From: an uncultured bacterium
GTDB lineage: Bacteria > Desulfobacterota_D > UBA1144 > Nemesobacterales > UBA2774
Direction of reading: 5' to 3'
Length of the DNA: 64,000 bases
NCBI GenBank assembly: GCA_963705505.1
Contig: CAVPJU010000006.1
Span: 576,001 to 640,000, forward strand
Shown: in pieces, positions 9,858-60,977 of the stretch
Layout: each line of letters opens with the position of its first letter
Numbering within the stretch: the stretch's first letter is position 1
Program-made: the position numbers and the translations under genes
The notes under the pieces: generated by a model
What the model saw: the letters and a program-made list of their open reading frames with translations, nothing else
Databases searched by the model: none
Told to the model about the DNA's origin: nothing

Positions 9858-9912
9858 ATTATTACTAAAAAAGATTAATTTTCTATTAAGGTTCGGTTGA
9901 GCATTGGTTAAC
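9858..9912 (-). promoter_or_regulatory. Pho-box-like array (4 x 11-bp period) plus -10
   Basis: Minus strand: GTTAACCAATG CTCAACCGAAC CTTAATAGAAA ATTAATCTTTT ttagt AATAAT. Confidence 0.6.
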
Positions 9913-10058
9913 GATCACGGTTGCTCGGCGTATTAACTACATCTTGCGCGTGAATCGAAATCGGATTAGAGGGGTTTTTAATTCCGCGGTGTTGACTTTT
10001 AAGAAAAAATAAATCCATACTAGATTTTCATATCGATGGAAACGGTACCGTATAACCA

Positions 10059-10817
10059 ATGAGAATCTGTACACTTGCGAGCGGCAGTTCCGGGAATTCT
10101 CTATATATAGAATCCGAGGACACGAGGATCCTCGTCGACGCGGGAATAAGTCTCCGGCAGATCGGTCTCAAGCTGAGGAGGCTCGATGTGGATGTATCCG
10201 ATATCGACGCCGTTGTAGTTACCCACGAGCATTCCGACCACACTGCGGCCATACCGAATATAGGCGTCCCGGTGCATGTCGCCAGAGCCACGTCCCATCT
10301 CTGGCATAATAAAGTGAGCTCTCTCAGGGAATTCGATAGCGATGCTTCTTTTATGATAAAGGATATGTTGATAACACCCTTCTCCGTGCCTCACGACGCC
10401 CTTGACCCCGTCGGCTTCTCGATCGAATCCGGCAAAGATGAGAAGATAGGGGTGGTCACGGACATAGGCACCGTCACTGCATTAGTCAGAGAGAGGCTCA
10501 GGGGGTCGAACGCTCTCGTATTGGAATTCAACCACGATAACGACATACTCCTTTACAGCCACTATCCGTGGGATCTAAAGCAGAGGATCAGGGGACGCCT
10601 GGGCCACCTTTCGAATAACCAGGCTTCGGAGCTCCTCTCGGAATTGGTTCATTGCGGGTTAAAACACCTTGTGCTCGCCCATTTGAGCCAGGTGAATAAC
10701 AAACCCGAAGTAGCTTATGAATCTGCGTCGAGCGTGTTAAAGAAATCGGTTGATGGGACGGAGGTGCAAATCTCAGTCGCTCCCAGAAAAACCATGGGGG
10801 AGGTGCTTACGATTTGA
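10059..10817 (+). CDS. MBL-fold metallohydrolase (YycJ/WalJ-like)
   Basis: ASGSSGNS, THEHSDH, PHDA, GHLSN, LAHLS. Confidence 0.88.
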   Translation: MRICTLASGSSGNSLYIESEDTRILVDAGISLRQIGLKLRRLDVDVSDIDAVVVTHEHSDHTAAIPNIGVPVHVARATSHLWHNKVSSLREFDSDASFMIKDMLITPFSVPHDALDPVGFSIESGKDEKIGVVTDIGTVTALVRERLRGSNALVLEFNHDNDILLYSHYPWDLKQRIRGRLGHLSNNQASELLSELVHCGLKHLVLAHLSQVNNKPEVAYESASSVLKKSVDGTEVQISVAPRKTMGEVLTI

Positions 10818-12106
10818 TTCCCAGATATTCAAGGCCTGAAATGTCCGCGGTCTGGACGGATGAGGCAAAGTACAGAAACTGGCTTCGAGTTGAAATTGCC
10901 GTTTGCGAGGCATGGGCTAAGTACAAGCGGATACCCAAAAAAGCGGTGGATGCCATTAAGAAGAAAGCCGGGTTCGATGTCGCCAGGATCAACGAGCTCG
11001 AAAAAGAGCTTAAGCACGATGTAATCTCCTTTCTGACCTCGGTCTCGGAGCACGTAGGTAAGGAATCAAGGTATATCCATCTCGGCCTCACATCATCCGA
11101 CGTTCTCGATACCGCGTTCGCGCTTCAGCTGAGGGAAGCGGCCGAAATAATAATTCAAGATATCAAGGTCGTAATTAAGATTCTAAAAAAACAAGCGTTT
11201 AAATATAAGAAGACGCCCATGATCGGCAGGACCCACGGCATTCACGCAGAGCCTAAAACACTGGGACTCGTATTCGCGCTCTGGTATGACGAAATGAAAA
11301 GGAACCTGGAGCGGATTATACGGGCAAGGGATGTTGTCAGCGTCGGCAAGATTTCAGGGGCTGTCGGGACGTTCGCGAACGTTACTCCCGAGATAGAGGA
11401 AGACGCTTGCAGACGCTTGGGTCTCAGGCCTGCTCCGATATCCACCCAGATCGTCCAGCGCGACATACATGCCGAATACTTCCTCACTCTGTCGATAATA
11501 GCATCGACTATCGAAAAAATAGCCTTGGAAATAAGGCACTTTCAGAGGACGGAAGTGCTCGAGCTCGAAGAGCCGTTTACGGAGGGCCAGAAGGGCTCAT
11601 CTGCAATGCCTCACAAGAGGAACCCTGTGCTTTCTGAAAACCTGTGCGGGCTTGCCCGTGTCGTTCGCTCTTATTCCATTACCTCGCTTGAGAATATACC
11701 CCTCTGGCACGAACGCGATATCAGTCATTCGTCCGTCGAGAGGGTGATTGGTCCCGACAGTACGATCCTCCTCGATTTCATGCTCGACAGGCTCGCCTAT
11801 CTTCTTGAGGGTCTTCAGGTCTATCCCGAGAATATGGAAAAAAACATATGGCTCACACGAGGACTCATATTCTCGCAAAAGGTTTTGCTGAAACTGGTCG
11901 AAAAAGGCGTGTCCAGAGAGGACGCCTATAAGCTAGTCCAACGGAATGCCATGAAAACGTGGAAGGAGAATGCCGATTTCCTCGACCTCCTTATTAAAGA
12001 CGCGGATGTCGCGGGTTTATTAACTAAGGAAGAAATAAAAGAATGTTTTGATGTGACCGCCGATCTCAAGAATATCGACCGCATATTCGACAGGGTGTTT
12101 TCATGA
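10814..12106 (+). CDS. purB: Adenylosuccinate lyase
   Basis: MIPRYSRPEM, HLGLTSSD, GRTHGIHAEP, GSSAMPHKRNP, HERDISHSSVER. Confidence 0.97.
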   Translation: MIPRYSRPEMSAVWTDEAKYRNWLRVEIAVCEAWAKYKRIPKKAVDAIKKKAGFDVARINELEKELKHDVISFLTSVSEHVGKESRYIHLGLTSSDVLDTAFALQLREAAEIIIQDIKVVIKILKKQAFKYKKTPMIGRTHGIHAEPKTLGLVFALWYDEMKRNLERIIRARDVVSVGKISGAVGTFANVTPEIEEDACRRLGLRPAPISTQIVQRDIHAEYFLTLSIIASTIEKIALEIRHFQRTEVLELEEPFTEGQKGSSAMPHKRNPVLSENLCGLARVVRSYSITSLENIPLWHERDISHSSVERVIGPDSTILLDFMLDRLAYLLEGLQVYPENMEKNIWLTRGLIFSQKVLLKLVEKGVSREDAYKLVQRNAMKTWKENADFLDLLIKDADVAGLLTKEEIKECFDVTADLKNIDRIFDRVFS

Positions 12107-12220
12107 ATTAAAATTGAATAATTCTGGCTACTAGCGCTTAAATTAGGCCAGAGGAGTTTATGTTGCTTTCTCAACATTCAGTGGTATAGTTTTAGCTAAC
12201 AAAAACCCAAGGAGGCATGT

Positions 12221-13348
12221 ATGAGATTTAAATTTTTGTCTTTGGCAATACTTACAATAACATTTCTAATTGTAGGCAGCCAGGCGTTCAGCCAGCAAAT
12301 ATCAAAAGAAGACTCTTCACGTCTTCAGACGTTTTTTAAAAACAGGTTCGGTGCGAATTTAACGCCCGATACCGTTATCGAGGTTCAAGGTTTTGAAGAA
12401 AGTTCGATAAAGGGTCTCAAAAAAGGTAAATTCGTTATCACTACCCCTCAGGGGGCGCAGGACGTTGCCTTCGTCATCAGCCAGGACGGGAAATATATAT
12501 TAATGGGCAACATGGTGGAGACATCGACCTTTAAAGAGACGCCGATAAAGAACATAAAGCAGGGTGCGATCCCCATTCCAAGGGGCGAGTTCCCAATTCT
12601 GATGACAGCTGACGGAAAGTTTCTGATCATCAATAGCGAGATTGTGGACACATCGAAGTTCAAGGCGTCCAAGATAACCGGTTTCAGAGAGGGATCGTTT
12701 AATATGGGAGGCCGTCAGACCGTTCCTGTGTTCGTTAGCGATAACGGGAAGTATCTCGTTCTCGGAAGCGAGGTATTCGATACGACCGTCGATCCGCATA
12801 AAGAGATAATGGAAAAGATAACGCTCGAGAACGTTCCGACAAAAGGCGCTGCGGACGCGAAGGTTACAATAGTCGAGTATTCTGATTTTCAGTGTCCTTT
12901 CTGCAAGAGGGGAAAAGATATGCTCCCCGCGATCTTAAAGGAATATAACGGGAAGGTTAAAATCTCCTACAAGCAGCTTCCTTTGAAGAACCATAACTGG
13001 GCAATGCCTGCCGCGATAGCCGCTACATGCGTCTATCAGGAGGGTGGTAATGATAAGTTCTGGGCTTACCATGACAAGCTATTCGATAATCAGAAGGACA
13101 TTACACTCGAGAACTCGAATGAAAAATTCAATCAGTATGCAAAGGAGCTAGGGCTCGATACCAAGAAGTTCGATGCATGCCTGCAATCCAAGGAAGTAAA
13201 GGCAAAGGTTGAGAGTCAGATTAAAGAAGCTACGGAAGTCGGGGTTCAGTCCACACCCACATTCGTCGTTAACGGTATGATAGTACCTGGCGCGAATCCG
13301 GAAGGTCTTAAATCCGCTATTGAGATTAAGCTCACGCAAGGTTCCTGA
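12221..13348 (+). CDS. Exported DsbA/DsbG-like thioredoxin-fold protein with three N-terminal repeats
   Basis: Signal peptide; EYSDFQCPFC; GVQSTPTFVVNG; three S/T-x-D/N-GK-Y/F-L repeats. Confidence 0.85.
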   Translation: MRFKFLSLAILTITFLIVGSQAFSQQISKEDSSRLQTFFKNRFGANLTPDTVIEVQGFEESSIKGLKKGKFVITTPQGAQDVAFVISQDGKYILMGNMVETSTFKETPIKNIKQGAIPIPRGEFPILMTADGKFLIINSEIVDTSKFKASKITGFREGSFNMGGRQTVPVFVSDNGKYLVLGSEVFDTTVDPHKEIMEKITLENVPTKGAADAKVTIVEYSDFQCPFCKRGKDMLPAILKEYNGKVKISYKQLPLKNHNWAMPAAIAATCVYQEGGNDKFWAYHDKLFDNQKDITLENSNEKFNQYAKELGLDTKKFDACLQSKEVKAKVESQIKEATEVGVQSTPTFVVNGMIVPGANPEGLKSAIEIKLTQGS

Positions 13349-13369
13349 CACCATAGTAAATAAATTCAT

Positions 13370-13445
13370 CTGCGCCCTATCCCGACTCCATATACCCATC
13401 AGAATGATTGATCTGATTAGTCGGGTTAGGGCGCAGTTTTTTTTT
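13370..13445 (+). terminator. Long composite hairpin + U9 terminator after the Dsb gene
   Basis: CTGCGCCCTATCCCGACT / AGTCGGGTTAGGGCGCAG (17 of 18 positions pair), inner ATCAGA/TCTGAT stem, T9. Confidence 0.7.
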
Positions 13446-13492
13446 CGTGCATAATATATTGATTACCATATTCGATATTACACCGAACACCC

Positions 13493-14428
13493 ATGAAATG
13501 TCCGTCGTGCGGATATAACAGTTTTGACTATCTGGAATACTGCAAGAAATGCGGTTCTCCTCTGAGTGCCGACCCGATATATAGAGCTTCTGATCAGGAA
13601 GATGCTAAAAGTGCTGAAATGAGCTCCGGGACGCACCGGGAAAACAATTCCGGCGACTCTTTAGACAGCTTGTTCAGTGAGCGCCCCCTCCCGGCGGACG
13701 ATACATCGTCACTCACTAAATCTCCGAAGTCATGGCCATCGAAGCGTAAACGGGGGGCTACGGCCGAAAATGATATCGAGAATGAATCCTATGAACTGTT
13801 TCCTGTCTCTAAAGAGTTTGGAAGAGGGAGGCCGGCAGAAAATAGACGCGGTAATTTTCCTCGCGCCCCAAAGAAAAAGGAGCCGCGTTTTGAAGAGGAG
13901 ATATCGGCACTGCGGTCTGACCCGTTCGTATCTGTCGAACACGAGGATGCTTCCGATGAGCCGGATTTACGGAAAGGAGCGGGATATGGCGAGCGGGAGA
14001 CCGAGGTATATAATCTCGCGGGCATCATTTCACGCGCTATCGCATTGATCATAGATATTGTGCTCGTCTCACTGGTCGCGTTTCTCGCGGCCGCAACGGG
14101 TATATATTTGGTAAATGGATTTAACCCGGGGGCATCGGAATCCCAAGATATATTTTTTCCCTTGTATATCATCCTTTTCTTCCTTGCGTCCACGTACTTT
14201 GTTTTTCTCCACGGGTACGGAGGGAAGACAGTTGGAAAGATGATGATGGGTATAAAATTGATCAATAACGAGGGTGAGAGGGTAGGGTTCTGGGAAGCCT
14301 TTGTCAGGTGGCTCGGCTATTATGTCTCCGCAGCGTTTTTGTTCGCGGGATTTTTGTGGTCTTTAATAGATTCCGAATATCAGACCTGGCACGATAAGCT
14401 CGCCGGAACATACGTCGTGAAAGATTGA
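13493..14428 (+). CDS. RDD family membrane protein with N-terminal zinc ribbon
   Basis: CPSC...CKKC; low-complexity linker; RAIALIID, GKTVGKMMMGIK, WHDKLAGTYVV. Confidence 0.85.
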   Translation: MKCPSCGYNSFDYLEYCKKCGSPLSADPIYRASDQEDAKSAEMSSGTHRENNSGDSLDSLFSERPLPADDTSSLTKSPKSWPSKRKRGATAENDIENESYELFPVSKEFGRGRPAENRRGNFPRAPKKKEPRFEEEISALRSDPFVSVEHEDASDEPDLRKGAGYGERETEVYNLAGIISRAIALIIDIVLVSLVAFLAAATGIYLVNGFNPGASESQDIFFPLYIILFFLASTYFVFLHGYGGKTVGKMMMGIKLINNEGERVGFWEAFVRWLGYYVSAAFLFAGFLWSLIDSEYQTWHDKLAGTYVVKD

Positions 14429-14435
14429 GACAGTG

Positions 14436-15698
14436 ATGCAGCATCTTAATGAACTAAATGTCAGGATATCGGGGAGCAAGGAGAAATTAGAAGCCTGGTT
14501 CAGGGGGAAGGCTGAAAAGGAGTTCATTCCCCTCTACTCCTCGGTTGATCTCAGGGTATCCGATCATAAGATCGCTCCCGTCGATACGAACATATTCCCC
14601 GCCGGGTTTAATAACCTCTCACAGCCTTTCAGGGACCGCGCATCCGTGCTTTTTAGGGACTATTTCCTCCGTAAGTACCCGAAAGTAAAAAATATTCTTA
14701 TCATTCCCGAGCTCCATACGAGAAACCCGTACTACTGGGAAAACATTTATGTCCTTAAGTCGATACTCGAGAATGTCGATTACGAGGTGGAAGTCGGGAT
14801 TGTGAGCGACGATTTTAACCAGGACGAAGCGTCTTTCCGTTCTCAGAGCGGAGAGGAAGTCGTGGCGCAAAAAGTAATGAAGGAAGGTAATAGGATATTT
14901 ACCTCGAGAGTTTCGCCCGATCTCCTGCTGATTAACAATGATTTTTCCGAGAAGTGTCCGAAGACACTGAAGGACATACTGCAGCCGGTCGAGCCGCCGG
15001 TTGAGATCGGCTGGCACACGAGGAGAAAGAGCGTCCATTTCGAGTATTACAACAGGCTTGCCGGGGAGGCGGCGGAAATCCTGGGCATCGACCCGTGGAT
15101 AATCTCGATCGATACCGTCTCGCTTCAGGGTGTGGACTTCGATAGTCCCGAAGACAGGGATAGAACCGCGTCGATCGCGGACACGATGCTGCAGAGGCTC
15201 CGGAAGGTCTATAGAGAAAAGGGGGTTTCCGAAGAGCCGTATCTGTTCTTAAAGAGTAATTCCGGAACCTACGGTATGGCAGTTATAAGCGTTTCGAACG
15301 GGGATGAAATACGCACCCTCAATGCCGAAGGGAGAAAGCGGATGAGGGTGAGTAAGGGGGGTAAGCCCGTGAGGGATATAGTCATACAGGAAGGGATACC
15401 GACGGCCATAAAACTGGGTTCGGATGCGGCTGCGGAGCCCGTATTCTATCTCGTCGAATCCAAGGTGGCGGGGGGATTCTTGAGGGTTAACCGCGGGAAA
15501 GACGACCATGAGAACCTGAACACGAAAGGAATGGAATTTACTCCGTTGTATGGTGAGGGAGAAAAGATCGAAGCCGAAGACGAGAGTATGATTTTTTCCC
15601 CGGTTCATGAATTGGTCTCGTGTATCGCGAGCATCGCTGCGGGGTACGAGATTGAGGAGATATTGAGGGAGGGTGGGTGCAAGGAAGAGGTTCTCTGA
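14436..15698 (+). CDS. gshA: Glutamate--cysteine ligase, ATP-grasp-like GshA family
   Basis: YSSVDLR, KIAPVDTNIFPAGFNNL, PELHTRN, LLINNDFS, GWHTRRKS, KSNSGTYGM, QEGIPT. Confidence 0.85.
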   Translation: MQHLNELNVRISGSKEKLEAWFRGKAEKEFIPLYSSVDLRVSDHKIAPVDTNIFPAGFNNLSQPFRDRASVLFRDYFLRKYPKVKNILIIPELHTRNPYYWENIYVLKSILENVDYEVEVGIVSDDFNQDEASFRSQSGEEVVAQKVMKEGNRIFTSRVSPDLLLINNDFSEKCPKTLKDILQPVEPPVEIGWHTRRKSVHFEYYNRLAGEAAEILGIDPWIISIDTVSLQGVDFDSPEDRDRTASIADTMLQRLRKVYREKGVSEEPYLFLKSNSGTYGMAVISVSNGDEIRTLNAEGRKRMRVSKGGKPVRDIVIQEGIPTAIKLGSDAAAEPVFYLVESKVAGGFLRVNRGKDDHENLNTKGMEFTPLYGEGEKIEAEDESMIFSPVHELVSCIASIAAGYEIEEILREGGCKEEVL

Positions 15699-15807
15699 TT
15701 TAAATTCTTGTCTCTTTATAGCCGGACGACCGGCCCGGTCTTTTCGTTTATATTTTAATACCCTTCCCATTCGCAATACTTATTATATTCGGGATTAACC
15801 GAGAGAT

Positions 15808-17163
15808 TTATTTTCTTGCGAGGCTGAGCGCCCTTCTCAGAAGCACCGTATAAACAGGCTTTCCCCCCAGTCCCTCCGCAACGAGCGTGGCCGTGAGGCA
15901 GGTAACAATGAGCGGGAGTATCATGGAGTAATTGCCCGTCATTTCTATAGTGAGGGCGATGCCGGTGAGAGGCGCTCTTACTGTTGCGCAGAAGAGGGCC
16001 GCCATGCCCGCGACAGCGAAAAGCTCCGGACGCACGACGAGGTCGGGCCGCAGGCCGTGAGCGATGTTGCCATACCACATTCCGAACAATGTCCCCAGAG
16101 CCAGCATGGGTGCGAATATTCCGCCCGGCGCTCCCGAGCCGTAGCTTATCATCGTCGTTCCGAAACGTGCGAAGAAGAGCAGCAGAAGCATAGTCACAGG
16201 AATCGTGCCCGAGAGGGCTTTTGGTATGACTTTATAGCCTCCTCCCACTATATCGGGGTAAAGCCACGCGAGAAGCCCGATGAAGGCGCCCACGTAAAGC
16301 CCCGTAAGCGTGAACGCGGGCCCCTTCATGTTCGAGAAGAAGTCGAGTGTTCTCACGAGGAGGAAGTTGAATACGACGCCGAATATGCCGAATAAAAAAC
16401 CGAATATGAGAAAGATCCAGAGAGAGGTGAGCGGGGGGGTCGCGAGGACGGTCATCTCGATATCTGGGCTTTGTCCCATTATGGAGCGCAGCGCTATATC
16501 CGAAGCCGCCGAAGCTATAATCACCGACTGTACAGATAGAAAGTTGTATTTGAATTCGGGGCGCATCTCCTCGAATACGAAAAGGATGCCCGCGAGGGGA
16601 GCGTTAAATGCCGCGGTCAATCCTCCTCCGGCGCCCGCCGCTATGAGCGCATGAGCCTCCTCTTTTCCGGCTTTGAATATATCCGCAACCATCTTGCCGA
16701 TGTTTCCGCCCATATGGATAGTCGGCCCCTCCCTCCCTAAAACCATGCCGCCGCCTAACGAGAGCATGCCGCCCAAGAATTTCACGGGCAGCACATTTTT
16801 CCACCTGATCGGCCTTACGTCATCGAGGGCTCCTTCAATCTCGTGCACTCCGCTTCCTCCGGTCTCAGGGGCCAGCCTGCGGACGAGCAGAAATGCGAGA
16901 TATACAAGAACCGCCGAGAATATCACGGAGGCGATCAGTAAAAGCGCCGGGACCTGAGGAAGCATTCCGATGAGTATTTCCCTCGAATCCTGAACTTTTG
17001 CTATGCAGATTTGAAATAACGCCGCTACTGTCCCCGTGAGGGCGCCTACGATTAGAGACCAGAATAAAATCGGGCTGTATCTTTTCTCGGCAGCGAGGAA
17101 CCTCGATGCGATCCTGCTTATGTCTGATTGTCCTGCCGGTTTCCGCTCCGAGTGAAGCTTCAT
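15808..17163 (-). CDS. clcA: H+/Cl- exchange transporter ClcA
   Basis: GSGVHE, LGREGPT, AAFNAPLAG, GGIFAPM, TVRAPLTG, C-terminal P.YT.LL. Confidence 0.92.
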   Translation of the reverse strand: MKLHSERKPAGQSDISRIASRFLAAEKRYSPILFWSLIVGALTGTVAALFQICIAKVQDSREILIGMLPQVPALLLIASVIFSAVLVYLAFLLVRRLAPETGGSGVHEIEGALDDVRPIRWKNVLPVKFLGGMLSLGGGMVLGREGPTIHMGGNIGKMVADIFKAGKEEAHALIAAGAGGGLTAAFNAPLAGILFVFEEMRPEFKYNFLSVQSVIIASAASDIALRSIMGQSPDIEMTVLATPPLTSLWIFLIFGFLFGIFGVVFNFLLVRTLDFFSNMKGPAFTLTGLYVGAFIGLLAWLYPDIVGGGYKVIPKALSGTIPVTMLLLLFFARFGTTMISYGSGAPGGIFAPMLALGTLFGMWYGNIAHGLRPDLVVRPELFAVAGMAALFCATVRAPLTGIALTIEMTGNYSMILPLIVTCLTATLVAEGLGGKPVYTVLLRRALSLARK

Positions 17164-17413
17164 TACTCCCTCCGGTGTATTGATGGAGACGAACGTCTAT
17201 TCAAGTCAAATGAACCGATGCCGGATTGTCTGGATCGCTATTAATTATCTTTCTTATCCGGTATTAGCGCAATAGTAAAATCAGGCGGGATAAAATTATA
17301 GTTCCTGAGATCTCCGGGTGTGGATTGCCTGGAGGCCGAACTCCCGTGTTTTCGGGCGTGAGCGGATTGGGGAGGGTATGAGAAATGCGGGACTCATATA
17401 TGGTAGAGAATTT

Positions 17414-17842
17414 CTACCATTCCGCCACGTCTTTATGGGCCGTTATCTTTGAGGGTTTGATCCTCACGAGCATCTCGCCCGGGGCCGAATTTCTTTCCCC
17501 ATATGCTTCCGCCTGGTCTTCGCCCATGTACCTCCCGCCTATGCGTGTGGCCCAGTAAAGGAGCTCATCGGGGTCCTCGGAAAAAGAAGCCGTCCCTTCT
17601 ATCATGACGTATGAATAAGGCGGGGTCTGATCGTCGACAGCAAGGCATACACGGGGGTCGCGTTTCATGTTCTTATACTTTACGGATTCCCCTCCGGTCG
17701 TGAATATAACCGTATCGCCGTCGAGATAGAACCATATCGGGACGACGTGGGGCCGCCCGTCCCTTCTTACAGTCGCGAGCTTGCCTGTTTTTGTGCCGTC
17801 GAGAAGGAATGCTCTGTATTCCTCCCTGTTCATTTCCTTCAC
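17414..17842 (-). CDS. PPOX-class (pyridoxamine 5'-phosphate oxidase-like) putative F420-dependent oxidoreductase
   Basis: LATVRRDGRPHVVPIWF, K..N..RDPRV, V.IEG.A. Confidence 0.8.
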   Translation of the reverse strand: MKEMNREEYRAFLLDGTKTGKLATVRRDGRPHVVPIWFYLDGDTVIFTTGGESVKYKNMKRDPRVCLAVDDQTPPYSYVMIEGTASFSEDPDELLYWATRIGGRYMGEDQAEAYGERNSAPGEMLVRIKPSKITAHKDVAEW

Positions 17843-17945
17843 TGCGGAATCTCCTTCATTGAGGGCATATTATTTTGTCCCGGCCCGGGTGTTGTTCCCG
17901 AACGGATGGCCGTTTGATTCGGGAGATCGAATCGTTATTTTCTCT

Positions 17946-19328: not shown

Positions 19329-19457
19329 GCTTTTTCTCCTCCGTAAGCCATTATGATACCGTGATTTTGCGTATCATTGAATAAGACTTCCGAGAAACTA
19401 TATCACGGAGGGGGATTTTATATAAGGGCCCCGGCCGTGGCATGTGGTCAGATTCCG

Positions 19458-19934: not shown

Positions 19935-20094
19935 TTTGATTTCTCCCTGTATCGTTCAGCATAATGATACTTAAAGAATCCGGATTCCGCCCGTGCATGG
20001 TCGGACAGGAATCTTTTCACAGGATAAACTACTCTATAATATTGGACGATAAATAAGCGTTCACCGATACCGATTTACCGGAGGCGATAGTAAA

Positions 20095-44439: not shown

Positions 44440-44440
44440 T

Positions 44441-51772: not shown

Positions 51773-51783
51773 GCTCTACGTCC

Positions 51784-52791: not shown

Positions 52792-52803
52792 ACGGGGGTT
52801 GCA

Positions 52804-54060
52804 TTGCGTGTCGAAATCGAAAGTATTGCATTTGGCGGAAGCGGTATTGCTAAAAAGGACGGCAAGGTCTTTTTCGTAAAGGGCGGCCTCCCTCACGACA
52901 TACTCGATATAAAAATAGTAAATGATAAAGGTAGTTATGCCGAAGCCGTAATCGAGGCGATTGTGGAGCCCTCGGGGGAAAGGGTCGAGCCTCCGTGCCC
53001 CGTATTCGGTCTCTGCGGCGGGTGTCAGTTCCAGAACCTGAGATATTCGGCGCAGCTCAGGGAGAAGGAGAACGTACTGAGGGAAACGGTTGAAAGGATA
53101 GGGGGTTTCAGGGATGTCCGTATAGATACTACCATCCCTTCCCCTTCCGAGTACGGGTATAGGAGCCGCACCCTTCTTTCCGCCTGGTATTTTTCCGGGG
53201 GCTGGCATACAGGGTATTTTCAGGAGAAGAGCCGGAACACGGTAAAAGTCGTTTCGTGTCCCATTACCGATAGATGGATCAACGGTGCGATCTCCAGGCT
53301 GTCAGACGTTTTATCATCGATAGGAGACCCGCGTTATCCGCTGGAAAAAATATACATGTCTTCTGACGGAACGAGCGCTTATATTACGCTTGTGCCATAT
53401 TTCAGGAGCGGACCCGCCTCTCTCGGAGCGCTCGTAAGGCACCTCCGGAGGTTTGAGGAGACCAAAAACGTCTCGGTGATCGGGAATAAAGAGGTTCAAT
53501 TCGAGTTCTCGCATTCGGGTTACAGATTTTTGACGTCCCCTTCCGTGTTTACACAGTCGAATACCCCTGTAAACGAGGCTATTATCGATACTGTCCTCAG
53601 CTGGTCGGAATTAAATGGGACGGAAACAGTACTGGACCTCTACTCAGGGATCGGCAATTTCTCGATCCCGCTCGCTAAGGGTTCGAAACAGGTAATTTCC
53701 GTAGAGATAAACAAAAGGGCGGCCGGATTCGCACAAAAAAACGCGGAATTGAACGGGCTTCAAAATATAATTTTTCACAATCTATCATGTGAAGAATATT
53801 TACCGGGTCATAATATGAGCACCCAGCCGGTAGATATAGCGGTGCTCGACCCTCCGAGGGAGGGGGCGAAAGGCGCGGTTGCGGAGATTACGCGCTTATC
53901 GCCTCGAAAAATTATTTACGTATCCTGTGACCCGGCGACTTTAGGACGGGATTTAAAGATGTTCGGGGACTCGGGTTATGAGCTTGCCGGGATAAGGCCG
54001 TTCGATATGTTCCCCCAGACCTATCACATAGAATCGGCCTCACTTTTGGTCAGATCCTGA
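52804..54060 (+). CDS. rlmD: 23S rRNA (uracil-C5)-methyltransferase, RlmD/TrmA family
   Basis: TRAM domain, CPVFGLCGGC, FTQSN, DLYSGIGNF, DPPREG, YVSC, DMFPQTYHIE. Confidence 0.88.
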   Translation: MRVEIESIAFGGSGIAKKDGKVFFVKGGLPHDILDIKIVNDKGSYAEAVIEAIVEPSGERVEPPCPVFGLCGGCQFQNLRYSAQLREKENVLRETVERIGGFRDVRIDTTIPSPSEYGYRSRTLLSAWYFSGGWHTGYFQEKSRNTVKVVSCPITDRWINGAISRLSDVLSSIGDPRYPLEKIYMSSDGTSAYITLVPYFRSGPASLGALVRHLRRFEETKNVSVIGNKEVQFEFSHSGYRFLTSPSVFTQSNTPVNEAIIDTVLSWSELNGTETVLDLYSGIGNFSIPLAKGSKQVISVEINKRAAGFAQKNAELNGLQNIIFHNLSCEEYLPGHNMSTQPVDIAVLDPPREGAKGAVAEITRLSPRKIIYVSCDPATLGRDLKMFGDSGYELAGIRPFDMFPQTYHIESASLLVRS

Positions 54061-54104
54061 TGCTTTTAACCGGGCTCAGAGCGGCGATAGATATTCAAAC
54101 TGTT

Positions 54105-54946
54105 TTACATCCGGTTGATTCTTGAAGGCTTGGTTATTTCCGAATCACCGTCTTCTCTGCTTTCCTCTCTCCCCCCGTTATTAAATGCGCCGTTGATCAG
54201 ATCGTAAACGGATCTCGCCAGATCCTTTCTTGAGGCCATTGATTGAGGGTCGATTTTATCGAGCAGCATTAATTCCACATCTATGGATTTAACCGGCAGC
54301 AGCTTGAACAGGTGATCGAAAAATTTCATGTCCCCGTAATAATGAACCAGGTCTCTGTTCTTTTCGGTGATCTCTTCTCCGTCGATGCTCCTGTATTTGA
54401 TGCATAGGGGTAAAATTTCCACGCCGGCTTTTTCGGCAATGCTTAACAAGGGGGTTTTAAATGGCAGGACCTGATCCCCGTTTGAAGTCGTCCCCTCGGG
54501 AAAAAGGGCCACATTGATCCCCATACTTAAAATCTCGGAAATCGATTCTATCTCGTTCCTGAGTCCCGATCTGTTCCTCCTCTCAACGAAGAACCCTCCG
54601 CTGAGCTCCGTGGCCTTACCGAGAAGGAACGAGCCTTTTACCTCATCCACGCTCGCTATAAAGGACGCTGGAAAGATCGAGGATATTACGAAGACATCCA
54701 GGTACGAGAGGTGGTTCGACAGGATCAGGAAATTTGTTTCGCCGCGGAGACCGCTTCCCCGGCTCTTCGGATGGACCTTGATGCCTAAGACCTTGATCAA
54801 GAGGACTGCGTGAAAGGCCATTGCCCTCGTGGACCAGTTTAATTTCCTTTTTCTATCTCTTGCTATGGTTCGAAGGACGGTGGTAACAGCCATATAGGAT
54901 GCGACTACGCAAAAAAAAAGATGAGTTTTACATATTTTCTAATCAT
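54105..54946 (-). CDS. olsA: Lyso-lipid O-acyltransferase (OlsA/PlsC-like); N-terminus out of frame at an A9 tract (54911-54919)
   Basis: NHLSYLD, FVERR, FPEGTTS; directly downstream of the olsB-like gene. ATG 54946 overlaps the olsB end, and one extra T restores an N-terminus collinear with the paralog at 6027. Confidence 0.7.
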
Positions 54947-55799
54947 TCGATGCCTTGTATCTTTTTTCAAAGGATTTGGAAAGAACCTCGAGGTCGAGGA
55001 CCGTAAAGAAATCTGCGCATTTGAATTTTTTGTCGAGCGCCGGCTCTCCGCAAATTACCGATCCCGCTTTTAAGTAGCTCTTGAGAAGGGGAGGGATGAA
55101 ATCCTCGATCGATTCCGTCTTGATCGCGAACTTATCAAAAGCGCCTAAATAGTAGTCGAGCTCCTTGATCCTGTGATTTTCTTTAGGAAAAACCCTGAAG
55201 TTCTCGGGGGACAGGTAGAGCTCTTTTATATATTTGTAAATAAGACTGATTTCGACGATATTTGTAGTGCCGATACTTGAACACCCGAAGAGATATTTTG
55301 CATTGATCTTCCTGAAATATTCGGATAACCCTTTCCACAGAAGGGCTATCCCTATACCGTTCCTGTAATCCCTGTGGACGCACGCTCTCCCCAGTTCGAG
55401 CTTAATGCCCTCGGCGTTTTTAACCTGGTCGATCGCAAACTCGGTCTCCGAATAAAATTTGTCCGAAAAAGTAGAGGAGATAAATCTGTACGTCCCTACA
55501 ACCGTGTTGTGCTTTTTGTCCAGAATGATTAAGTGGTCGCAAAGAGAGTCGAACTTGTCAATATCGGTCCTGGAAAAGTTATCTTTATTGAGTGTTTCCT
55601 TGTAAAAGACCTCGTACCTGAGGTTCAAGGCTTTTTCGAGCTCGAAAATGTTTTCAACCGTTTTGATCACGAACTTGTTGCTTTCAATCAAAAGAGGAAC
55701 CTTTGGCTTAAACTGTCTTAACTTCCAGCGGAAAGCTCTTCTCAGAACGTTTGAAGAGGTAACCGTATTTGTTAGAGACATCACTTTTTTTGCCAGCAT
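54939..55799 (-). CDS. olsB: GNAT N-acyl amino acid synthase, OlsB-like (ornithine lipid)
   Basis: LRYEVF, D.DKFD..CDHL, VVGTYR, ELGRACVHRDYR, LLWKGL, YLFGCSS, PPLLKSYL, CGEPALD. Confidence 0.8.
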   Translation of the reverse strand: MLAKKVMSLTNTVTSSNVLRRAFRWKLRQFKPKVPLLIESNKFVIKTVENIFELEKALNLRYEVFYKETLNKDNFSRTDIDKFDSLCDHLIILDKKHNTVVGTYRFISSTFSDKFYSETEFAIDQVKNAEGIKLELGRACVHRDYRNGIGIALLWKGLSEYFRKINAKYLFGCSSIGTTNIVEISLIYKYIKELYLSPENFRVFPKENHRIKELDYYLGAFDKFAIKTESIEDFIPPLLKSYLKAGSVICGEPALDKKFKCADFFTVLDLEVLSKSFEKRYKASND

Positions 55800-55849
55800 G
55801 CATATCTCCGATTTGTGTGTTAACTGTTTAATACCACTTTAATGTTTAA

Positions 55850-55882
55850 ACCGTATTAAGCATCTATGAATTCTATGTTTAT
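55850..55882 (-). promoter_or_regulatory. Weak Pho-box-like array upstream of olsB
   Basis: Minus strand ATAAACATAGA ATTCATAGATG CTTAATACGGT at 11-bp period; no clear -10 at the usual spacing. Confidence 0.4.
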
Positions 55883-55975
55883 AAAATGTATCAATTATAT
55901 CAAATAAATAGGCATAAAGTCCAGTTATGGCAGCCGACCGAAAATGAATAGTATATTCGGTTTTTGAACTTTCGC

Positions 55976-56019
55976 TTTAATACATTTTTAATATTCCCTT
56001 AACGACAGTGATTTACAAT
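55976..56019 (+). promoter_or_regulatory. Pho-box-like array plus -10
   Basis: TTTAATACATT TTTAATATTCC CTTAACGACAG tgatt TACAAT. Confidence 0.7.
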
Positions 56020-56043
56020 GCATATCGCAAACGGGAAAGAGTC

Positions 56044-56360
56044 ATGAAATGTACGAAAAATAGTTTTATCTGCCGTGCTTGGAATAACTGTTAGTATCGA
56101 ATATAATTGGATTTTTAAGAACGGACGGGTTCTCGCGCCGGACTAAACCGTTTCGGATTTAAATAAAATGCGGACCAGGCACGGCTATATTGAAATGTTG
56201 AAAAAAGATAGAGTGTGCGGCGCTAGGTCATTGGCGGGTCCGCAAGTCAATTTTATAAGCCTGCGGGAATGGCTGAGGCCCGGATGTGCGCCGGACCCGG
56301 CGGGGTGATATACTCTTTAGGAGTACGGAATTGCGCCGCGGTATAGTAGAATACCGGATG
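56044..56360 (+). pseudogene. Decayed PlcP/LpxH-like metallophosphoesterase relic
   Basis: Fragments in correct order across frames: RKIVLSAV-LG, LDF, HG, SLA..VNFIS, GVIY, NCAA-IVEY; about half normal length, with stops. Confidence 0.5.
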
Positions 56361-56410
56361 ACGCCTTGTTTGGATGAATTTCTCGCGGGCTAGTAACAAA
56401 TGAGCTGATA

Positions 56411-57472
56411 ATGAAAGTATTGCTCGGAATACAAGGTACGGGAAATGGTCATATCTCCCGGTCAAGAGAGCTGTTGAAGTATCTTCTAAAGCGTGTCGAT
56501 GTGGACGTGCTCGTGAGCGGCTACCATCATGAGGTCGATCCCGGATTCGAAGTCAAATATAAGCTCCCGGGCCTGGGATTCACGTTCGGAAAACGGGGAG
56601 GGATCGATTACTGGAATTCTATCAGAAACTTCAGCCCGTATAAATTGCTCTCGGATATATATAAGATTCCAGTCGACAAATATGATCTTGTCGTCAGCGA
56701 TTTTGAGCCTGTCAGCGCCTGGTCCTCGAAGTTAAAGGGGGCTCCCTGTGTTTCTATCTCTCACCAGGCATCATTCCTGTCTCCGAATATACCGAGACCG
56801 CCGCAAAAAAACCGTGTCCAGGAGCTCATAATCAAATGGTATGCCCCCTCACCGGCCCATATCGGACTCCATTTTCAGGAATACGACGATTTTATTTTTA
56901 CGCCGATAATAAGGGAGGAAATAAGACATACCGATGTGAAAAATAACGGGCACTATACGGTATATCTGCCGTCTTACGATTACAGGTTTCTGTCCGCCGT
57001 ATTAAAGAAAATAGACGTAAGGTGGGAAGTGTTCTCAAAACATCACAAGGGGGAGCCGTACAAGGACTCGAACGTCACCGTTTACCCGGTAAACAACGGG
57101 GATTTCGTGAGAAGCCTGTCGACTTGCGAGGGCATATTGTGCAATGCCGGATTCGAAACGCCCGCAGAAACACTTTACCTCGGGAAGAAACTCATGGTTA
57201 TTCCGATGAAGAGACAGTACGAGCAGCAGTGTAATGCCGAAGCCCTCGATAGGCTGGGTATACCTGTAGTCAGGGGGATGCATAACGGATTTGAGAATAT
57301 TCTTAGCGACTGGATCAACTCAACTTTTGTCTATAACGCTAACTACAAAAACAATCTGCCCTTAATTGTCGAAAGAATACTAGACAGCTCTTCTAAAGCC
57401 GATGTGTTGAATGATTATATTTCTGATCCGGATTTAAATAAAGATGGGGTAGGCTTGGGGCCCACCAAATAA
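56411..57472 (+). CDS. GT-B glycosyltransferase, MJ1255/VC2487-like family
   Basis: GIQGTGNGHISR, YDLVVSDFEP, ISHQ, TVYLP, NAGFETPAE, EQQCNA. Confidence 0.82.
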   Translation: MKVLLGIQGTGNGHISRSRELLKYLLKRVDVDVLVSGYHHEVDPGFEVKYKLPGLGFTFGKRGGIDYWNSIRNFSPYKLLSDIYKIPVDKYDLVVSDFEPVSAWSSKLKGAPCVSISHQASFLSPNIPRPPQKNRVQELIIKWYAPSPAHIGLHFQEYDDFIFTPIIREEIRHTDVKNNGHYTVYLPSYDYRFLSAVLKKIDVRWEVFSKHHKGEPYKDSNVTVYPVNNGDFVRSLSTCEGILCNAGFETPAETLYLGKKLMVIPMKRQYEQQCNAEALDRLGIPVVRGMHNGFENILSDWINSTFVYNANYKNNLPLIVERILDSSSKADVLNDYISDPDLNKDGVGLGPTK

Positions 57473-57545
57473 TACCGCAGTCCGCTTTTAGCTTTTTCTA
57501 TCCGATCTTTTACTCGGTCCCCGGCGATTTATATTTCTGAGACTG

Positions 57546-58121
57546 TTACTGTTTACTTGTAAGATAATTTGATACCAGAGACAGACTTACCAGCTTCTCC
57601 GCTATGTTCTTATATAATTCCCCGATCTTTAGTAAATTTATCACCTCGTCTATATTGTGCCAATCCTGAATCAGGTATGTGAGGAGGACCCTCTTGTGCT
57701 GGTCTTCCAATGATTCGATAAACTCATAGTCCTCTCCCAATCTCTTGGTATCGAACTTCTCATACCAGTTTTTGCATTCCACCAGCGTTATTATGTGCGG
57801 GAGCAATATATCGAGCATTTGTTTTGTGTCGATCTCGGGACATATGGGCTTTCTCGATTTCAGGTTTTCCATCAGCTGCACGGAATACGTGAATTTGTGG
57901 ATAATTGAAAGTATCAGCTTGAGTGCCGTAATATAGTAGACATCGTGTTCTTTCTTGCTATGCTCGATCGCCGTCTCGAGCTTGAGCTTAAGATGAATGA
58001 GGTCGTTTCTCAGGGAAATCAACTCATCTTCGCTTCTGGTATTGATATAATTCTTCGATTTCGAAATGAGTATTTCGAACTTGCCCTCTATTAAAGATCT
58101 GTCGAAATTTTCAGTTTCCAT
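57546..58121 (-). CDS. Hypothetical protein (helical, AT-rich)
   Basis: ~191-aa ORF with GAGGGG RBS and its own repeat-array promoter. Confidence 0.7.
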   Translation of the reverse strand: METENFDRSLIEGKFEILISKSKNYINTRSEDELISLRNDLIHLKLKLETAIEHSKKEHDVYYITALKLILSIIHKFTYSVQLMENLKSRKPICPEIDTKQMLDILLPHIITLVECKNWYEKFDTKRLGEDYEFIESLEDQHKRVLLTYLIQDWHNIDEVINLLKIGELYKNIAEKLVSLSLVSNYLTSKQ

Positions 58122-58161
58122 ATTCACCCCTCTTTAGTGTACGTCGGAATTACGTGGGGGT

Positions 58162-58205
58162 AGTGTATATGGGTTTTGTTAAGATTGTGTGAAGATCGTG
58201 TTAAG
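58162..58205 (-). promoter_or_regulatory. Pho-box-like array plus -10
   Basis: Minus strand CTTAACACGAT CTTCACACAAT CTTAACAAAAC ccata TACACT. Confidence 0.72.
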
Positions 58206-58290
58206 TATTCGGGCTCGAAGACTCGATAACGTTTTGCATGCAACCCGCTTTAAAATGGAATCGCATGTGATATAGAGTCCGCTCAGAGAA

Positions 58291-58375
58291 TAAAAAGGGT
58301 GAGTCCTGCGGGTCGGGACTCACCCTGATGTTTTACATTGCCCGGTGAGAGAGACGGGCAATCAAATAGCAGATG
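58291..58375 (-). ncRNA. Candidate small RNA 2 (~85 nt), under the 11-bp-repeat promoter
   Basis: Hairpin ATTGCCCG/CGGGCAAT with UCUCUCUCAC loop, then an 11-bp terminator stem + U-tract; own promoter; no ORF. Confidence 0.58.
58292..58326 (-). terminator. Rho-independent terminator
   Basis: AGGGTGAGTCC (58296-58306) / GGACTCACCCT (58316-58326); A-run at 58292-58296. Confidence 0.8.
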
Positions 58376-58380
58376 ATGTA

Positions 58381-58435
58381 ATACTAGCACTTCATTATTA
58401 AGATAATTTTATTTGCGAGTTAAGGCATCGTTAAC
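58381..58435 (-). promoter_or_regulatory. Pho-box-like array plus extended -10
   Basis: Minus strand GTTAACGATGC CTTAACTCGCA AATAAAATTAT CTTAATAATGA agtgc TAGTAT (TGn-TAGTAT). Confidence 0.68.
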
Positions 58436-58513
58436 CCGGTATAGGGAAGACATAATTGGTTTCCGCGAAATGCTCGACCGGGGTAGGGAAGCGCAAGGGA
58501 CGGATGTATGGCC

Positions 58514-59500
58514 TCACATGAGGTGGTTTACAAACTGGTCTGCAATCGACTTCCAGCTCTGCGTTTCGGCATGTTTGAGCGCATTATTCGACAAGCCTTC
58601 AATATTCGCGAAAGCCCTTTCGATATTCTCTTCGAGGCTTTCCCCGATATATCCCGTCACCCCGTTCTGGATTATGTCGTTCGGGCTCGGGACATCGTAG
58701 GCGACAACGGGTAAACCGCAAGCCATAGCCTCGAGTATTACTAATCCGAATGTATCGAATTTACTCGGGAAAACGAATACCTGAGCCTGAGTGTAAATAT
58801 TTTTCAGCTGATTATGAGGCACGTACCCGGTGAACTCGACATCGGGATACCTGGCTTTGAGAGTCTTGAGATACGGTCCGTCTCCGACAAGTATTTTTCT
58901 GTATCCGCGTATCGCGCAAAAATCATCGAGATTTTTATCCTTGCTCACCCTGCCTACCGTAATGATGGTTTTCTCTTTGAATGGCGTTGTCCTGTCTCCG
59001 GGATTAAACAGGTGAGTGTCGACTCCCCTCCCCCAGACGATACAGTTACTGAGACCAAGCTGCCTGGCTATGCTTTTCGTCGTCACGAGGACTTTCTTAC
59101 TGCACCTGTGAAACCACCTTACATATAACCATGTGAGGAACGTGGGCACGCCGTAAAGTACCCAGCCGTAGTCGGCCAGTCTCGTGTGATAGGACGTATT
59201 GTAGTTGATTTTATTTTTTCTGCAGAACTGCCGCATGGCCAGGCCGAGGCTCCCCTCGGTGGCTATGTGCACTCTGTCCGGGAGATGCTGATCATAATGT
59301 TTACTCACGATGTGGGACGCATTTTTCAGTATAGGGATGTTTCCCTGGAGCTTTAGCGGCAGGTGCTCGGAGCCTTCTATGTAGGGATTCAGAACGGCTA
59401 CTTCATGATCCCTGCTGATCAGATTCGTGATATAGCTCCAGGTATGGACTACACCGTTTACCTGGGGGTGCCAAGCGTCCGTGACGAGCATTATTTTCAT
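58514..59500 (-). CDS. GT4 glycosyltransferase, Agt-like glycosyl-diacylglycerol synthase
   Basis: MKIMLVTDAWHPQVNGVV, HIATEG.LG, YHT, WGRGVD, VGRVSKDKN, DTFGLVILEAMACG. Confidence 0.82.
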   Translation of the reverse strand: MKIMLVTDAWHPQVNGVVHTWSYITNLISRDHEVAVLNPYIEGSEHLPLKLQGNIPILKNASHIVSKHYDQHLPDRVHIATEGSLGLAMRQFCRKNKINYNTSYHTRLADYGWVLYGVPTFLTWLYVRWFHRCSKKVLVTTKSIARQLGLSNCIVWGRGVDTHLFNPGDRTTPFKEKTIITVGRVSKDKNLDDFCAIRGYRKILVGDGPYLKTLKARYPDVEFTGYVPHNQLKNIYTQAQVFVFPSKFDTFGLVILEAMACGLPVVAYDVPSPNDIIQNGVTGYIGESLEENIERAFANIEGLSNNALKHAETQSWKSIADQFVNHLM

Positions 59501-59549
59501 TTTATCAGGCTCCCGTGATCTGCACTTAGGTTAAGGAACGTTTTTAGGT

Positions 59550-60188
59550 TCACAGCGCGTTGGTCAGATATAAAATAATTATGACGGTCGCCGCTCCGAG
59601 AAAACTGCCCGCGAGTGTCTGCGGAAATGTATGCCTTCCGAGACGTATACGGGACCATGCAATTACCGGTACTATGAGCGTAAGGGGGAGAACGCTTTCT
59701 CCGTATAAAGCCAGCGTCAGAAAAGCGAGCCCGGCTGCCGAAGTGCAGTGACCGCTTATCTTCCATCTGAGCGTGATGACAAAAACAAGAAGTATTTGAA
59801 TGAGGGCTGCCGCAGTCACTATGAGCATCAGTCTGGGCGCTCCTGCCATATACATAACAAGGAAGACAAGGGCAACGTACGCCAGTATTACGAACAACGG
59901 CTGAGCGCGCTCCTCTCTTATATTCATGTGGAAATCACTTACTTTTCCCCTGTGAACGAGCGTAAGGACGTAAACCGTAGGGGGTATTATGAGCAGGGCA
60001 ATGAAAATTAATATCCAGAAGAAGGTGGACTCACCTTGAGTCGCCAGCGCAGTTATGATTATGCATGAAAGCGCTATAAGCGGCGGGCTGAACAAGTTCG
60101 AGATTATGCGCGCCGACTTGTCACGCCAGTCGAGCGGAATGATTATCGAATCGGACGGCTGTTGATAGAGTTTCTTGTCAGTTTCCAT
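59550..60188 (-). CDS. PAP2-like integral membrane phosphatase
   Basis: ~6 TM segments; KISGH and SRIRLGRHTFPQ (PAP2 motifs 2 and 3). Confidence 0.72.
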   Translation of the reverse strand: METDKKLYQQPSDSIIIPLDWRDKSARIISNLFSPPLIALSCIIITALATQGESTFFWILIFIALLIIPPTVYVLTLVHRGKVSDFHMNIREERAQPLFVILAYVALVFLVMYMAGAPRLMLIVTAAALIQILLVFVITLRWKISGHCTSAAGLAFLTLALYGESVLPLTLIVPVIAWSRIRLGRHTFPQTLAGSFLGAATVIIILYLTNAL

Positions 60189-60912
60189 TTTGAAGCTCTC
60201 TGCTCGAATTATATTGGGACCAGTATCCCCAGTCGTAACTCTTCCACTTGTCCGGGATCAGGTTGAAGTATAATGCGCTGCACCTGGTAATCGAGTGGAG
60301 GGTCTTTCTTATTACACCTCTTTCGAGCCGTCTGTGGTCTCCGGCGTATACTACTAAATCGAATGTAAAGTACGGCCTGTATCCCATACGCTTTAAACGC
60401 CAGGCAAGCTCCGAATCCTCATTACATGTAAGATCGAGGTCGAATCCCCCGGACATCTCATAAGCCTCCCTCTTGATAATGCAATTTGAACCCGAAACAG
60501 CAGGTACCCCGAGTAAGTGAATGAGACGCTGCCCGTAAGCAAACCATTTATAATAGGCACGAAAGCGGTCCAGGGAAAGCTTAGGTCCGTAAATCAGGTC
60601 GTATTCTTCGAGTTTCGCGATATTCCTGAAGTATGCCGCAGAAAAAACTATATCCGCGTCGGTAAAGAGCAGCCAGGGGGTTTTTGCAGCGTCGGCTCCT
60701 ATTCGCCGGGCTTCGGTGACAGTTCCGGGATGCCTGATAAGGTTAGTATAGTCCGGTCTCAGTGAAGAAACAATATCCGGCGTCGAATCTTCGCTTGCAT
60801 CAACAACAATGAGGTGAATGTCTTCGGGTACTGATTTTAGAAAATGACGTATATTATGAGACTCGTTTCTCGTGGGGAGGATTATAGTTAAGTCACCCGG
60901 TTTTATTCCCAT
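60178..60912 (-). CDS. GT2 glycosyltransferase
   Basis: IILPTRNE, IVVD, LLFTDAD, SGGFD, EDSEL; start placed at ATG 60912 because ATG 60921 abuts the predicted -10. Confidence 0.85.
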   Translation of the reverse strand: MGIKPGDLTIILPTRNESHNIRHFLKSVPEDIHLIVVDASEDSTPDIVSSLRPDYTNLIRHPGTVTEARRIGADAAKTPWLLFTDADIVFSAAYFRNIAKLEEYDLIYGPKLSLDRFRAYYKWFAYGQRLIHLLGVPAVSGSNCIIKREAYEMSGGFDLDLTCNEDSELAWRLKRMGYRPYFTFDLVVYAGDHRRLERGVIRKTLHSITRCSALYFNLIPDKWKSYDWGYWSQYNSSRELQNGN

Positions 60913-60922
60913 AACAATCATT

Positions 60923-60977
60923 ATTTTAATTACTATCTATTAAGCGGTGTTGAATTTCACGTTAATTTACCGTTAAA
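60923..60977 (-). promoter_or_regulatory. Pho-box-like array plus -10
   Basis: Minus strand TTTAACGGTAA ATTAACGTGAA ATTCAACACCG CTTAATAGATA gtaat TAAAAT. Confidence 0.72.

Follow-up and report, generated by a model that had tools for sequence, protein, structure and literature searches.

The 64,000-nt stretch of DNA analysed here (the window; C6:576001-640000 of the studied genome, G000) comes from an uncultured bacterium and carries two acyltransferase genes, three glycosyltransferase genes, a PAP2 phosphatase gene, a gene for a 191-aa protein and two candidate small RNAs (Table 1). Among these features lie five promoters, termed S1 to S5, in which tandem 11-bp repeats occupy the site expected for a -35 element, and these promoters together with the regulon that they would define are the subject of this report. 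The genome comprises 2.88 Mb in 10 contigs and is 93.6% complete, and the relatives compared belong to Candidatus Dadabacteria / Thermodesulfobacteriota, a lineage represented by metagenome assemblies only. The related loci are labelled L008-L021 (14 loci), the genus of G000 is g1, and g3 and g7 are other genera.

Table 1. Features of the window, with positions counted from its first nucleotide; matrix scores are those of the S1-S5 matrix.
Feature	Position	Strand	Details
S1 promoter	9858..9912	-	GTTAAC/CTCAAC/CTTAAT/ATTAAT (units 9869-9912), -10 AATAAT (9858-9863); matrix score 26.4
S2 promoter	55976..56019	+	TTTAAT/TTTAAT/CTTAAC, -10 TACAAT; matrix score 24.8
S3 promoter	58162..58205	-	CTTAAC/CTTCAC/CTTAAC, -10 TACACT; score 33.2, top array genome-wide
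S4 promoter	58381..58435	-	GTTAAC/CTTAAC/AATAAA/CTTAAT, -10 TAGTAT; score 22.8; third unit degenerate
S5 promoter	60923..60977	-	TTTAAC/ATTAAC/ATTCAA/CTTAAT, -10 TAAAAT; score 21.1; ATTCAA one base off
Weaker array before olsB-like gene	55828..55871	-	units 55839-55871, 5 nt, TATTAA 55828-55833; score 19.9
S1 small RNA candidate, ~64 nt	9788..9851	-	single-stranded 5' part with ACUCCGUGCUCC, GC-rich hairpin, U run; fold z -2.35
S4 small RNA candidate, ~85 nt	58289..58375	-	free 5' end AUCUGCUAUUUGAUU, CUCUCUC-loop stem-loop, terminator; fold z -5.12
olsA-like acyltransferase	54105-54893	-	Pfam Acyltransferase; best NCBIfam OlsA 124.4 bits, below cut-off 300
olsB-like acyltransferase	54939-55799	-	Pfam Acetyltransf_5/FeeM; best NCBIfam OlsB 138.7 bits, below cut-off 350
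Sigma-70-like promoter farther upstream of olsB-like gene	55894..55923	-	TGGACT-18-TATAAT, 10/12 matches; block kept in relatives
Sigma-70-like promoter between S2 and glycosyltransferase gene	56079..56107	+	TTGGAA-17-TATAAT, 10/12 matches
Glycosyltransferase	56411..57472	+	Glyco_trans_1_3 (GT1_3); MJ1255/VC2487 family
Gene of 191-aa protein ('orphan'), behind S3	57546..58121	-	start ATG 58121 preceded by GAGGGGTGA ribosome-binding site
Operon GT2-PAP2-GT4, behind S5	58514..60921	-	Pfam
GT4 glycosyltransferase	58514-59500	-	Pfam; best NCBIfam matches are membrane-glycolipid synthases, all below cut-off
PAP2 phosphatase	59550-60188	-	Pfam
GT2 glycosyltransferase	60178-60921 or 60912	-	Pfam
ArsA-type ATPase	61076-62260	-	C-terminal HSP20-like domain

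Each of the five promoters is built from three to four in-phase 11-bp units with an NTTAAY-like first hexamer, followed by 5 nt and a -10-like hexamer, and all five share one register, the 7-nt core of the last unit ending 9 nt before the -10 hexamer. No -35-like hexamer was found at S1-S5, where a simple promoter scan gave weak matches inside the arrays only. An earlier sequence-only reading of this DNA had described five promoters of one architecture with repeats in the -35 place, and all five are present at the positions and on the strands that it gave. It had further placed a weaker array at 55850-55882, which overlaps the array now located before the olsB-like gene by a log-odds matrix trained on the 15 promoter-proximal units of S1-S5, with 3-unit arrays scored on both strands. 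Beyond the five sites and this weaker array, the window holds no additional array scoring at least 17.

Scanning of the whole genome with this matrix recovered pstS, whose operon includes phoU, as well as an OprO/P-type porin gene beside phoB-phoR and metallophosphoesterase genes. The porin gene (C6:446113-447519, minus strand), which is divergent from phoB-phoR, is preceded by the best match outside the training sites (score 28.6), while the pstS array (score 28.2) is located 49 nt upstream of the gene that opens the operon pstS-pstC-pstA-pstB-arsC-phoU. Upstream arrays were also seen at a Metallophos_2 phosphodiesterase gene (24.3), at an MFS transporter gene (24.2) whose best family, a phosphate:H+ symporter, is matched below cut-off, and at a second metallophosphoesterase gene (19.8), and an array scoring 22.8 is divergent from pstS. 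Reciprocal matrices were derived from 27 distinct pstS upstream arrays of other family genomes, with G000 excluded and the register of the arrays set using the S1-S5 matrix. The full 11-column version ranked S3 first, the pstS array of G000 second and S2 third. When only the seven core columns were used, the genome-wide 3-unit ranks were S3 1, porin 2, pstS 3, S2 4, olsB array 16, S1 17, S4 20 and S5 31, and the 4-unit ranks were pstS 1, porin 2, S4 6, S3 8, S5 9, S1 10, olsB array 11 and S2 21.

The surroundings of the pst operon hold some further features. At L001:16278-16990 (G000 C6:557278-557990, plus strand), the array divergent from pstS is accompanied by TATCGT. For the 193-aa open reading frame (ORF) located 99 nt downstream of it, no family and a low Atlas recognition value (1591) were obtained, and it is possibly not a genuine gene; a kinship of the two Pho-box-linked 193-aa ORFs was considered and rejected, as they are unrelated to one another. 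Near the pst operon, at L001:4358-5856 (G000 C6:545358-546856, minus strand), egtB-egtD of ergothioneine synthesis has an array scoring 22.7 at 120 nt upstream, which could be fortuitous or could connect thiol metabolism with phosphate. Within the operon, between pstB and phoU, lies arsC, encoding an arsenate reductase of thioredoxin type (L001:9566-9991, minus strand).

The periodicity stands out from the background of the genome. Genome-wide, the spacings of same-strand TTAAY pairs show two peaks, one of 54 at 11 bp and one of 49 at 22 bp, with other spacings at about 30, and three TTAAY at 11-bp period occur five times. Across 1602 intergenic regions (333,170 nt, 42.8% GC), 12 three-unit arrays scoring at least 22 were observed, four of them from the training set, against a mean of 0.32 (maximum 4) in 200 dinucleotide shuffles; at a score of at least 28 there were three, one from training, against none in the shuffles. 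In AT-matched intergenic sequence that has been shuffled, the motif occurs much less often than in the genome itself.

The arrays are conserved among relatives. Upstream of pstS, a four-unit array, 5 nt and TTTAAT, TTTACT or TTAACT were found in 29 of 30 family loci, the 30th being interrupted by a contig end. The S3 array precedes the gene of the 191-aa protein in all 14 related loci, with TAnnnT exactly 5 nt downstream in 12 of them, and the S2 and S4 arrays score at least 18 in every one of L008-L014. For S5, the DNA of 12 related loci extends to the site, and 8 of them reached this score (L008-L010, L012-L014, L020 and L021), while a GC-richer equivalent is visible in L015-L017 and L019. 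The region of the olsB array is kept in L008-L014, and a weaker, GC-richer array occupies the equivalent position in L015-L019. Across these 14 to 30 related loci, cores are kept while linkers and flanks differ.

Only two Trans_reg_C proteins were found in the 93.6%-complete genome. One, encoded beside phoR, is PhoB (C6:447694-448383); its best family is PhoB TIGR02154, for which its 242 bits fall short of the 296 required. The adjacent kinase exceeds the cut-off for PnpS (409 against 400) and reaches 319 with the PhoR model. The other OmpR-family regulator (C2:32109-32783) is CopR/CusR-like, of heavy-metal type, and stands beside a CusS-like kinase. That the regulator lies outside the window, as had been supposed, agrees with the location of phoB about 128 kb before the window start. 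S1-S5 are very probably Pho boxes of PhoB, built of 11-bp direct repeats with the core CTTAAC(A), which replace the -35 element and are separated from the -10 hexamer by 5 nt. The occurrence of the motif at pst/pho genes, its rarity in shuffles and its fixed -10 spacing in relatives argue for the phosphate-starvation regulon that the sequence-only reading had proposed, as far as sequence can indicate. At low phosphate, PhoR would phosphorylate PhoB, which would bind the repeats head-to-tail and recruit RNA polymerase, on the model of E. coli PhoB. Outside the window, the core of such a regulon would consist of the pst operon with phoU, the phosphate-selective porin beside phoBR and the phosphoesterases; within it, the regulon would cover a cluster for phosphorus-free lipids, a putative PhoU-fold protein behind the strongest box of the genome and two terminator-ended small RNAs.

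Known systems offer close parallels. PhoB-type boxes are described with 11-nt repeat units in PMC4415409, and the E. coli Pho box is placed 10 bp upstream of the -10 in PMC1906773. The present arrays resemble the E. coli PhoB promoters (pstS, phoA), as depicted there, in their 11-bp direct repeats that substitute for a -35 about 10 bp upstream of the -10; they are also alike in having pstS as a target, here a predicted one, and an encoded PhoB-PhoR pair, whereas the core is CTTAAC(A) here and CTGTCAT there, with three to four units here and two there. PMC1906773 also gives the SphR box of Synechocystis (Su et al. 2007) as CTTAACCT, repeated in tandem at least three times with 8 bp per repeat. 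The likeness to it that the sequence-only reading had pointed out is apparent in a near-identical core (CTTAACA here), in the tandem arrangement of three or more 8-bp boxes spaced by 3-bp linkers and in pst targets, here predicted ones. Cyanobacteria are an unrelated phylum, however, and in the present lineage the -10 spacing is strictly fixed. In Bacillus subtilis, PhoP boxes consist of TT(A/T/C)ACA repeats about 11 bp apart, often in four units, and thus show similar TTAACA-like tandem hexamers and a similar period, while the organism and the regulator subfamily differ. In a limited literature search, no publication dealing with Dadabacterial Pho boxes came up; the type of regulon is already known and is newly seen in this lineage, its new content being the small RNAs and the predicted PhoU-fold protein.

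A number of observations weigh against the assignment to PhoB and its phosphate regulon. With the full 11-column pstS matrix, S1, S4 and S5 scored below 14 and were outside the 27 matches listed, because their linkers are A-rich. Good arrays also precede lepA, egtB, ribonucleotide reductase and tgt, which have no evident phosphate link, and these are either false positives of the matrix or members of a broader regulon. The phoB side of the porin-phoB spacer has no clear array, 'intergenic' was defined by a crude longest-ORF gene map, and the lipid functions are drawn from family matches below curated cut-offs.

It is improbable, in our estimate, that the arrays are true regulator sites serving another factor or a non-phosphate signal such as envelope or general stress, with pstS merely one of the targets. 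The second OmpR-family regulator would be available for such a role, some high-scoring arrays stand upstream of phosphate-unrelated genes, and a further regulator could have escaped from a genome of this completeness; nevertheless, the best families of the second regulator are heavy-metal types with a matching kinase adjacent, the best arrays outside the window are those at pstS and at the porin beside phoB-phoR, the former kept in nearly all family loci, and the core equals the SphR box as quoted in PMC1906773. Another alternative is repression, in which PhoB would bind boxes overlapping the -35 of promoters active in phosphate-replete cells. The boxes do occupy the expected -35 place, and OmpR-family response regulators can also repress, according to PMC4415409, but this reading appears very improbable, as the only -35-like matches at S1-S5 are weak and inside the arrays, the same geometry is found at pstS and the porin gene, which are canonical induced genes, and the olsB-like and GT1_3 genes have separate conserved sigma-70-like promoters, fitting a basal and inducible pair. 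That the arrays arose by chance in AT-rich intergenic sequence, or are phased A/T tracts causing DNA curvature with no dedicated protein involved, is scarcely credible: intergenic GC content is indeed 42.8% and the palindromic TTAA does yield reverse-strand pseudo-hits, but the excess over shuffles, the retention of cores amid varying linkers and flanks, and the fixed strand and distance to the -10 hexamer all speak otherwise.

Within the regulon attributed to PhoB, the genes behind the window promoters are, by annotation, chiefly of lipid type. The olsB-like and olsA-like genes are adjacent, and OlsB and OlsA are their best-scoring families. Together with the three glycosyltransferases and PAP2, they would form a cluster for phosphorus-free membrane lipids. 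The order ArsA-like/GT2/PAP2/GT4/orphan/GT1_3 (opposite strand)/olsB/olsA is syntenic across the 14 related loci, and most of them have every cluster gene within reach of their DNA; L020 gave no match for GT2, GT4, olsB or olsA, and L021 none for GT2. The ArsA-type ATPase gene adjoins the lipid cluster in 12 of the 14 loci, those with DNA reaching it. PhoB- or PhoP-dependent remodelling towards phosphorus-free lipids, namely ornithine lipids and glycolipids, occurs in rhizobia and marine heterotrophs, and the present cluster is alike in its olsB/olsA-like genes, lipid-type glycosyltransferases and PAP2 behind Pho boxes, although here the family scores are below cut-offs. Of the membrane remodelling put forward in the sequence-only reading, the lipid-type annotation of the genes behind the boxes stands, and the remodelling role itself is based on that annotation.

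S2 lies about 390 nt from the glycosyltransferase gene that it faces, and the sigma-70-like promoter between them is the most conserved block of this 5' region (alignment A4); a 16-codon ORF after S2 was dropped as a gene, as it is not conserved. The first ATG of the GT2 ORF (60921) directly abuts the S5 -10, and tblastn alignments to relatives start at residues 1-10. Given this abutment, the true start is probably the ATG at 60912, with which the mRNA would be leaderless or nearly so.

The protein encoded behind S3 had been called an orphan, and this holds as far as named families are concerned: none of 15 orthologues matched Pfam, and the PhoU model (PF01895) gave no match at E <= 10. The description is to be revised with regard to the predicted fold. 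An AlphaFold2 model of the 191-aa protein, computed from the orthologue alignment, is of medium confidence (pLDDT 72.5, pTM 0.73) and displays the six-helix fold of PhoU (PDB 1t72, 4q25, 2i0m) and of the PhoU-like structures 3l39 and 2iiu. In a Foldseek search with this model, the top 11 PDB matches were all PhoU or PhoU-like (TM 0.58-0.70), the best being 1t72_B (E 1.5e-4, TM 0.70). The sequence signal is weak, with an Atlas score of 0.89 to PhoU-domain clusters, a best PDB profile match to 1t72 at E 0.18 and an hhalign probability of 8.9% against the own PhoU of G000. The protein is thus likely to be a divergent member of the PhoU fold, judging from its model, and its gene has a predicted Pho box as a further phosphate connection; it differs from PhoU in the absence of the Pfam match and in the placement of its gene in the lipid cluster, away from pst, in a genome that also has a regular phoU.

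The presence of two small RNAs in the regulon, also proposed earlier, is supported by two conserved candidates with hairpin folds, terminators and predicted Pho-box promoters, S1 and S4. Both show the attributes of trans-acting small-RNA genes, that is, a predicted promoter of their own, an intrinsic terminator, no ORF and a conserved sequence with structure-preserving changes. Neither reaches a gathering threshold in Rfam, the best match for the S1 RNA being sbrA at 26.7 bits against a gathering score of 45. Hfq was not found in the genome. PhoS of Bacillus, a small RNA from the 3' UTR of phoPR that is induced by the Pho two-component system according to PMC11522486, is comparable in that a Pho two-component regulator, here predicted, governs small RNAs, while the S1 and S4 candidates differ in that each is preceded by a predicted Pho-box promoter of its own and neither matches Rfam.

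The S1 seed, sought with a gapped pattern that was needed for a 1-nt indel in G000, is present in 11 of 33 family genomes: G000, 9/10 of g3, 1/3 of g7 and 0/9 of the other g1 genomes. BLAST of the S1 region returned one relative only. In all 11 seed-bearing genomes the S1-type RNA is preceded by a -10 hexamer and, 5 nt further upstream, by a Pho array; the -10 is TATTAT in most, and each genome has its own, different terminator hairpin. In L008-L013, where the S1 seed is absent, as in all nine genus relatives, an S2-type transcript would start with ACCCUUAUCGUAAACUCCG, which resembles the S1 seed ACCCUAUCAACUCCG; this segment (alignment A4, columns 24-60, just downstream of the S2-type -10) can form a hairpin exposing AACUCCG, and it differs in G000 and L014. 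An S1-type RNA may accordingly be located at S2 in the seed-less genus relatives. In G000, a metallophosphoesterase of 170 aa has upstream of it, at C6:698321-698354 (plus strand), an array of two units and then CCCTAAAACTCC, 12 nt identical to the S1 seed, with no terminator evident. As for targets of the S1 RNA, the genome has no complementary site longer than 12 nt.

The S4 RNA occurs as a single copy in 15 of 120 class genomes: G000, 9/9 others of its genus, 4/10 of g3 and 1/3 of g7. Its 14 distinct variants, each folded singly, adopt the same architecture with compensatory changes in both hairpins; RNAalifold on a MAFFT alignment gave a poor consensus because the arms are out of register. 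No terminator-like site is listed on the S4-RNA strand between the GT4 stop codon and the S4 RNA, and the GT2-PAP2-GT4 transcript may therefore end at the S4 RNA terminator.

The invariant free 5' end of the S4 RNA, AUCUGCUAUUUGAUU, can be paired with the leader of 16S rRNA over 17 nt, all of them Watson-Crick pairs but for a single G-U (16 and 1), about 62 nt before the mature 16S. The paired segment lies just after a boxA-like element; in the stem through which 16S rRNA is processed it is the 5' strand, which normally pairs with the trailer. The leader motif is found in 19 family genomes, and in all eight genomes with both elements the S4-leader duplexes range from -18.5 to -23 kcal/mol; a base directly 5' of AUCUGCU covaries in seven of these eight, at a position that may be -1 and not transcribed. 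Statistical backing for the S4 targets is weak: in control searches, runs of at least 17 were reached by 39% of shuffled S4 seeds when G-U pairing was free, and 5% of 300 shuffled seeds found a genome site when at most one mismatch was allowed in 17-mers. At G000 C3:332105-332300 (minus strand; L139), the promoter of the rRNA operon reads TTGACA-17-TATTAT, the operon's leader contains the boxA-like GAUCUUUGAAAA, and the leader block CTTTGAAA(A/G)TT(A/G)AATAGCAGAT(G/A)AGC is present in 18 of the 19 family genomes with the leader recovered, G078 differing just after the AGCAGAT core.

A coupling of phosphate starvation to ribosome production through pairing of the S4 RNA with the 16S leader is conceivable on these grounds, though we hold it to be rather unlikely. 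The S4 RNA resembles the trailer strand and would bind the nascent leader, whose synthesis precedes that of the trailer by about 1.6 kb, and stem formation, processing or antitermination could be hindered in the bound leader; if true, the pairing would reduce the largest phosphorus sink of the cell. A limited literature search brought up no paper in which a small RNA of bacteria pairs with the leader of an rRNA. Among 2855 start regions, the one that pairs best with the S4 5' end (z -4.6) belongs to an enoyl-CoA hydratase gene, the pairing being at its ribosome-binding region; the site is kept in 9/9 genus relatives, and the neighbours of the gene are an SDR and a PhaC-like gene (PHA-type). 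This ribosome-binding site is put forward as a second candidate target, as a lead only.

Overall, the cis-regulatory code described here, namely CTTAAC(A) at an 11-bp period and 5 nt to the -10, would make phosphate-responsive genes readable from sequence in this lineage, and it predicts that phosphate scarcity is met in these bacteria by the replacement of phospholipids. A likely role is thereby assigned to a conserved protein without a family, and two new candidate small-RNA families are set out with a defined predicted inducing signal, one of which, the S4 RNA, may have a link to rRNA maturation.

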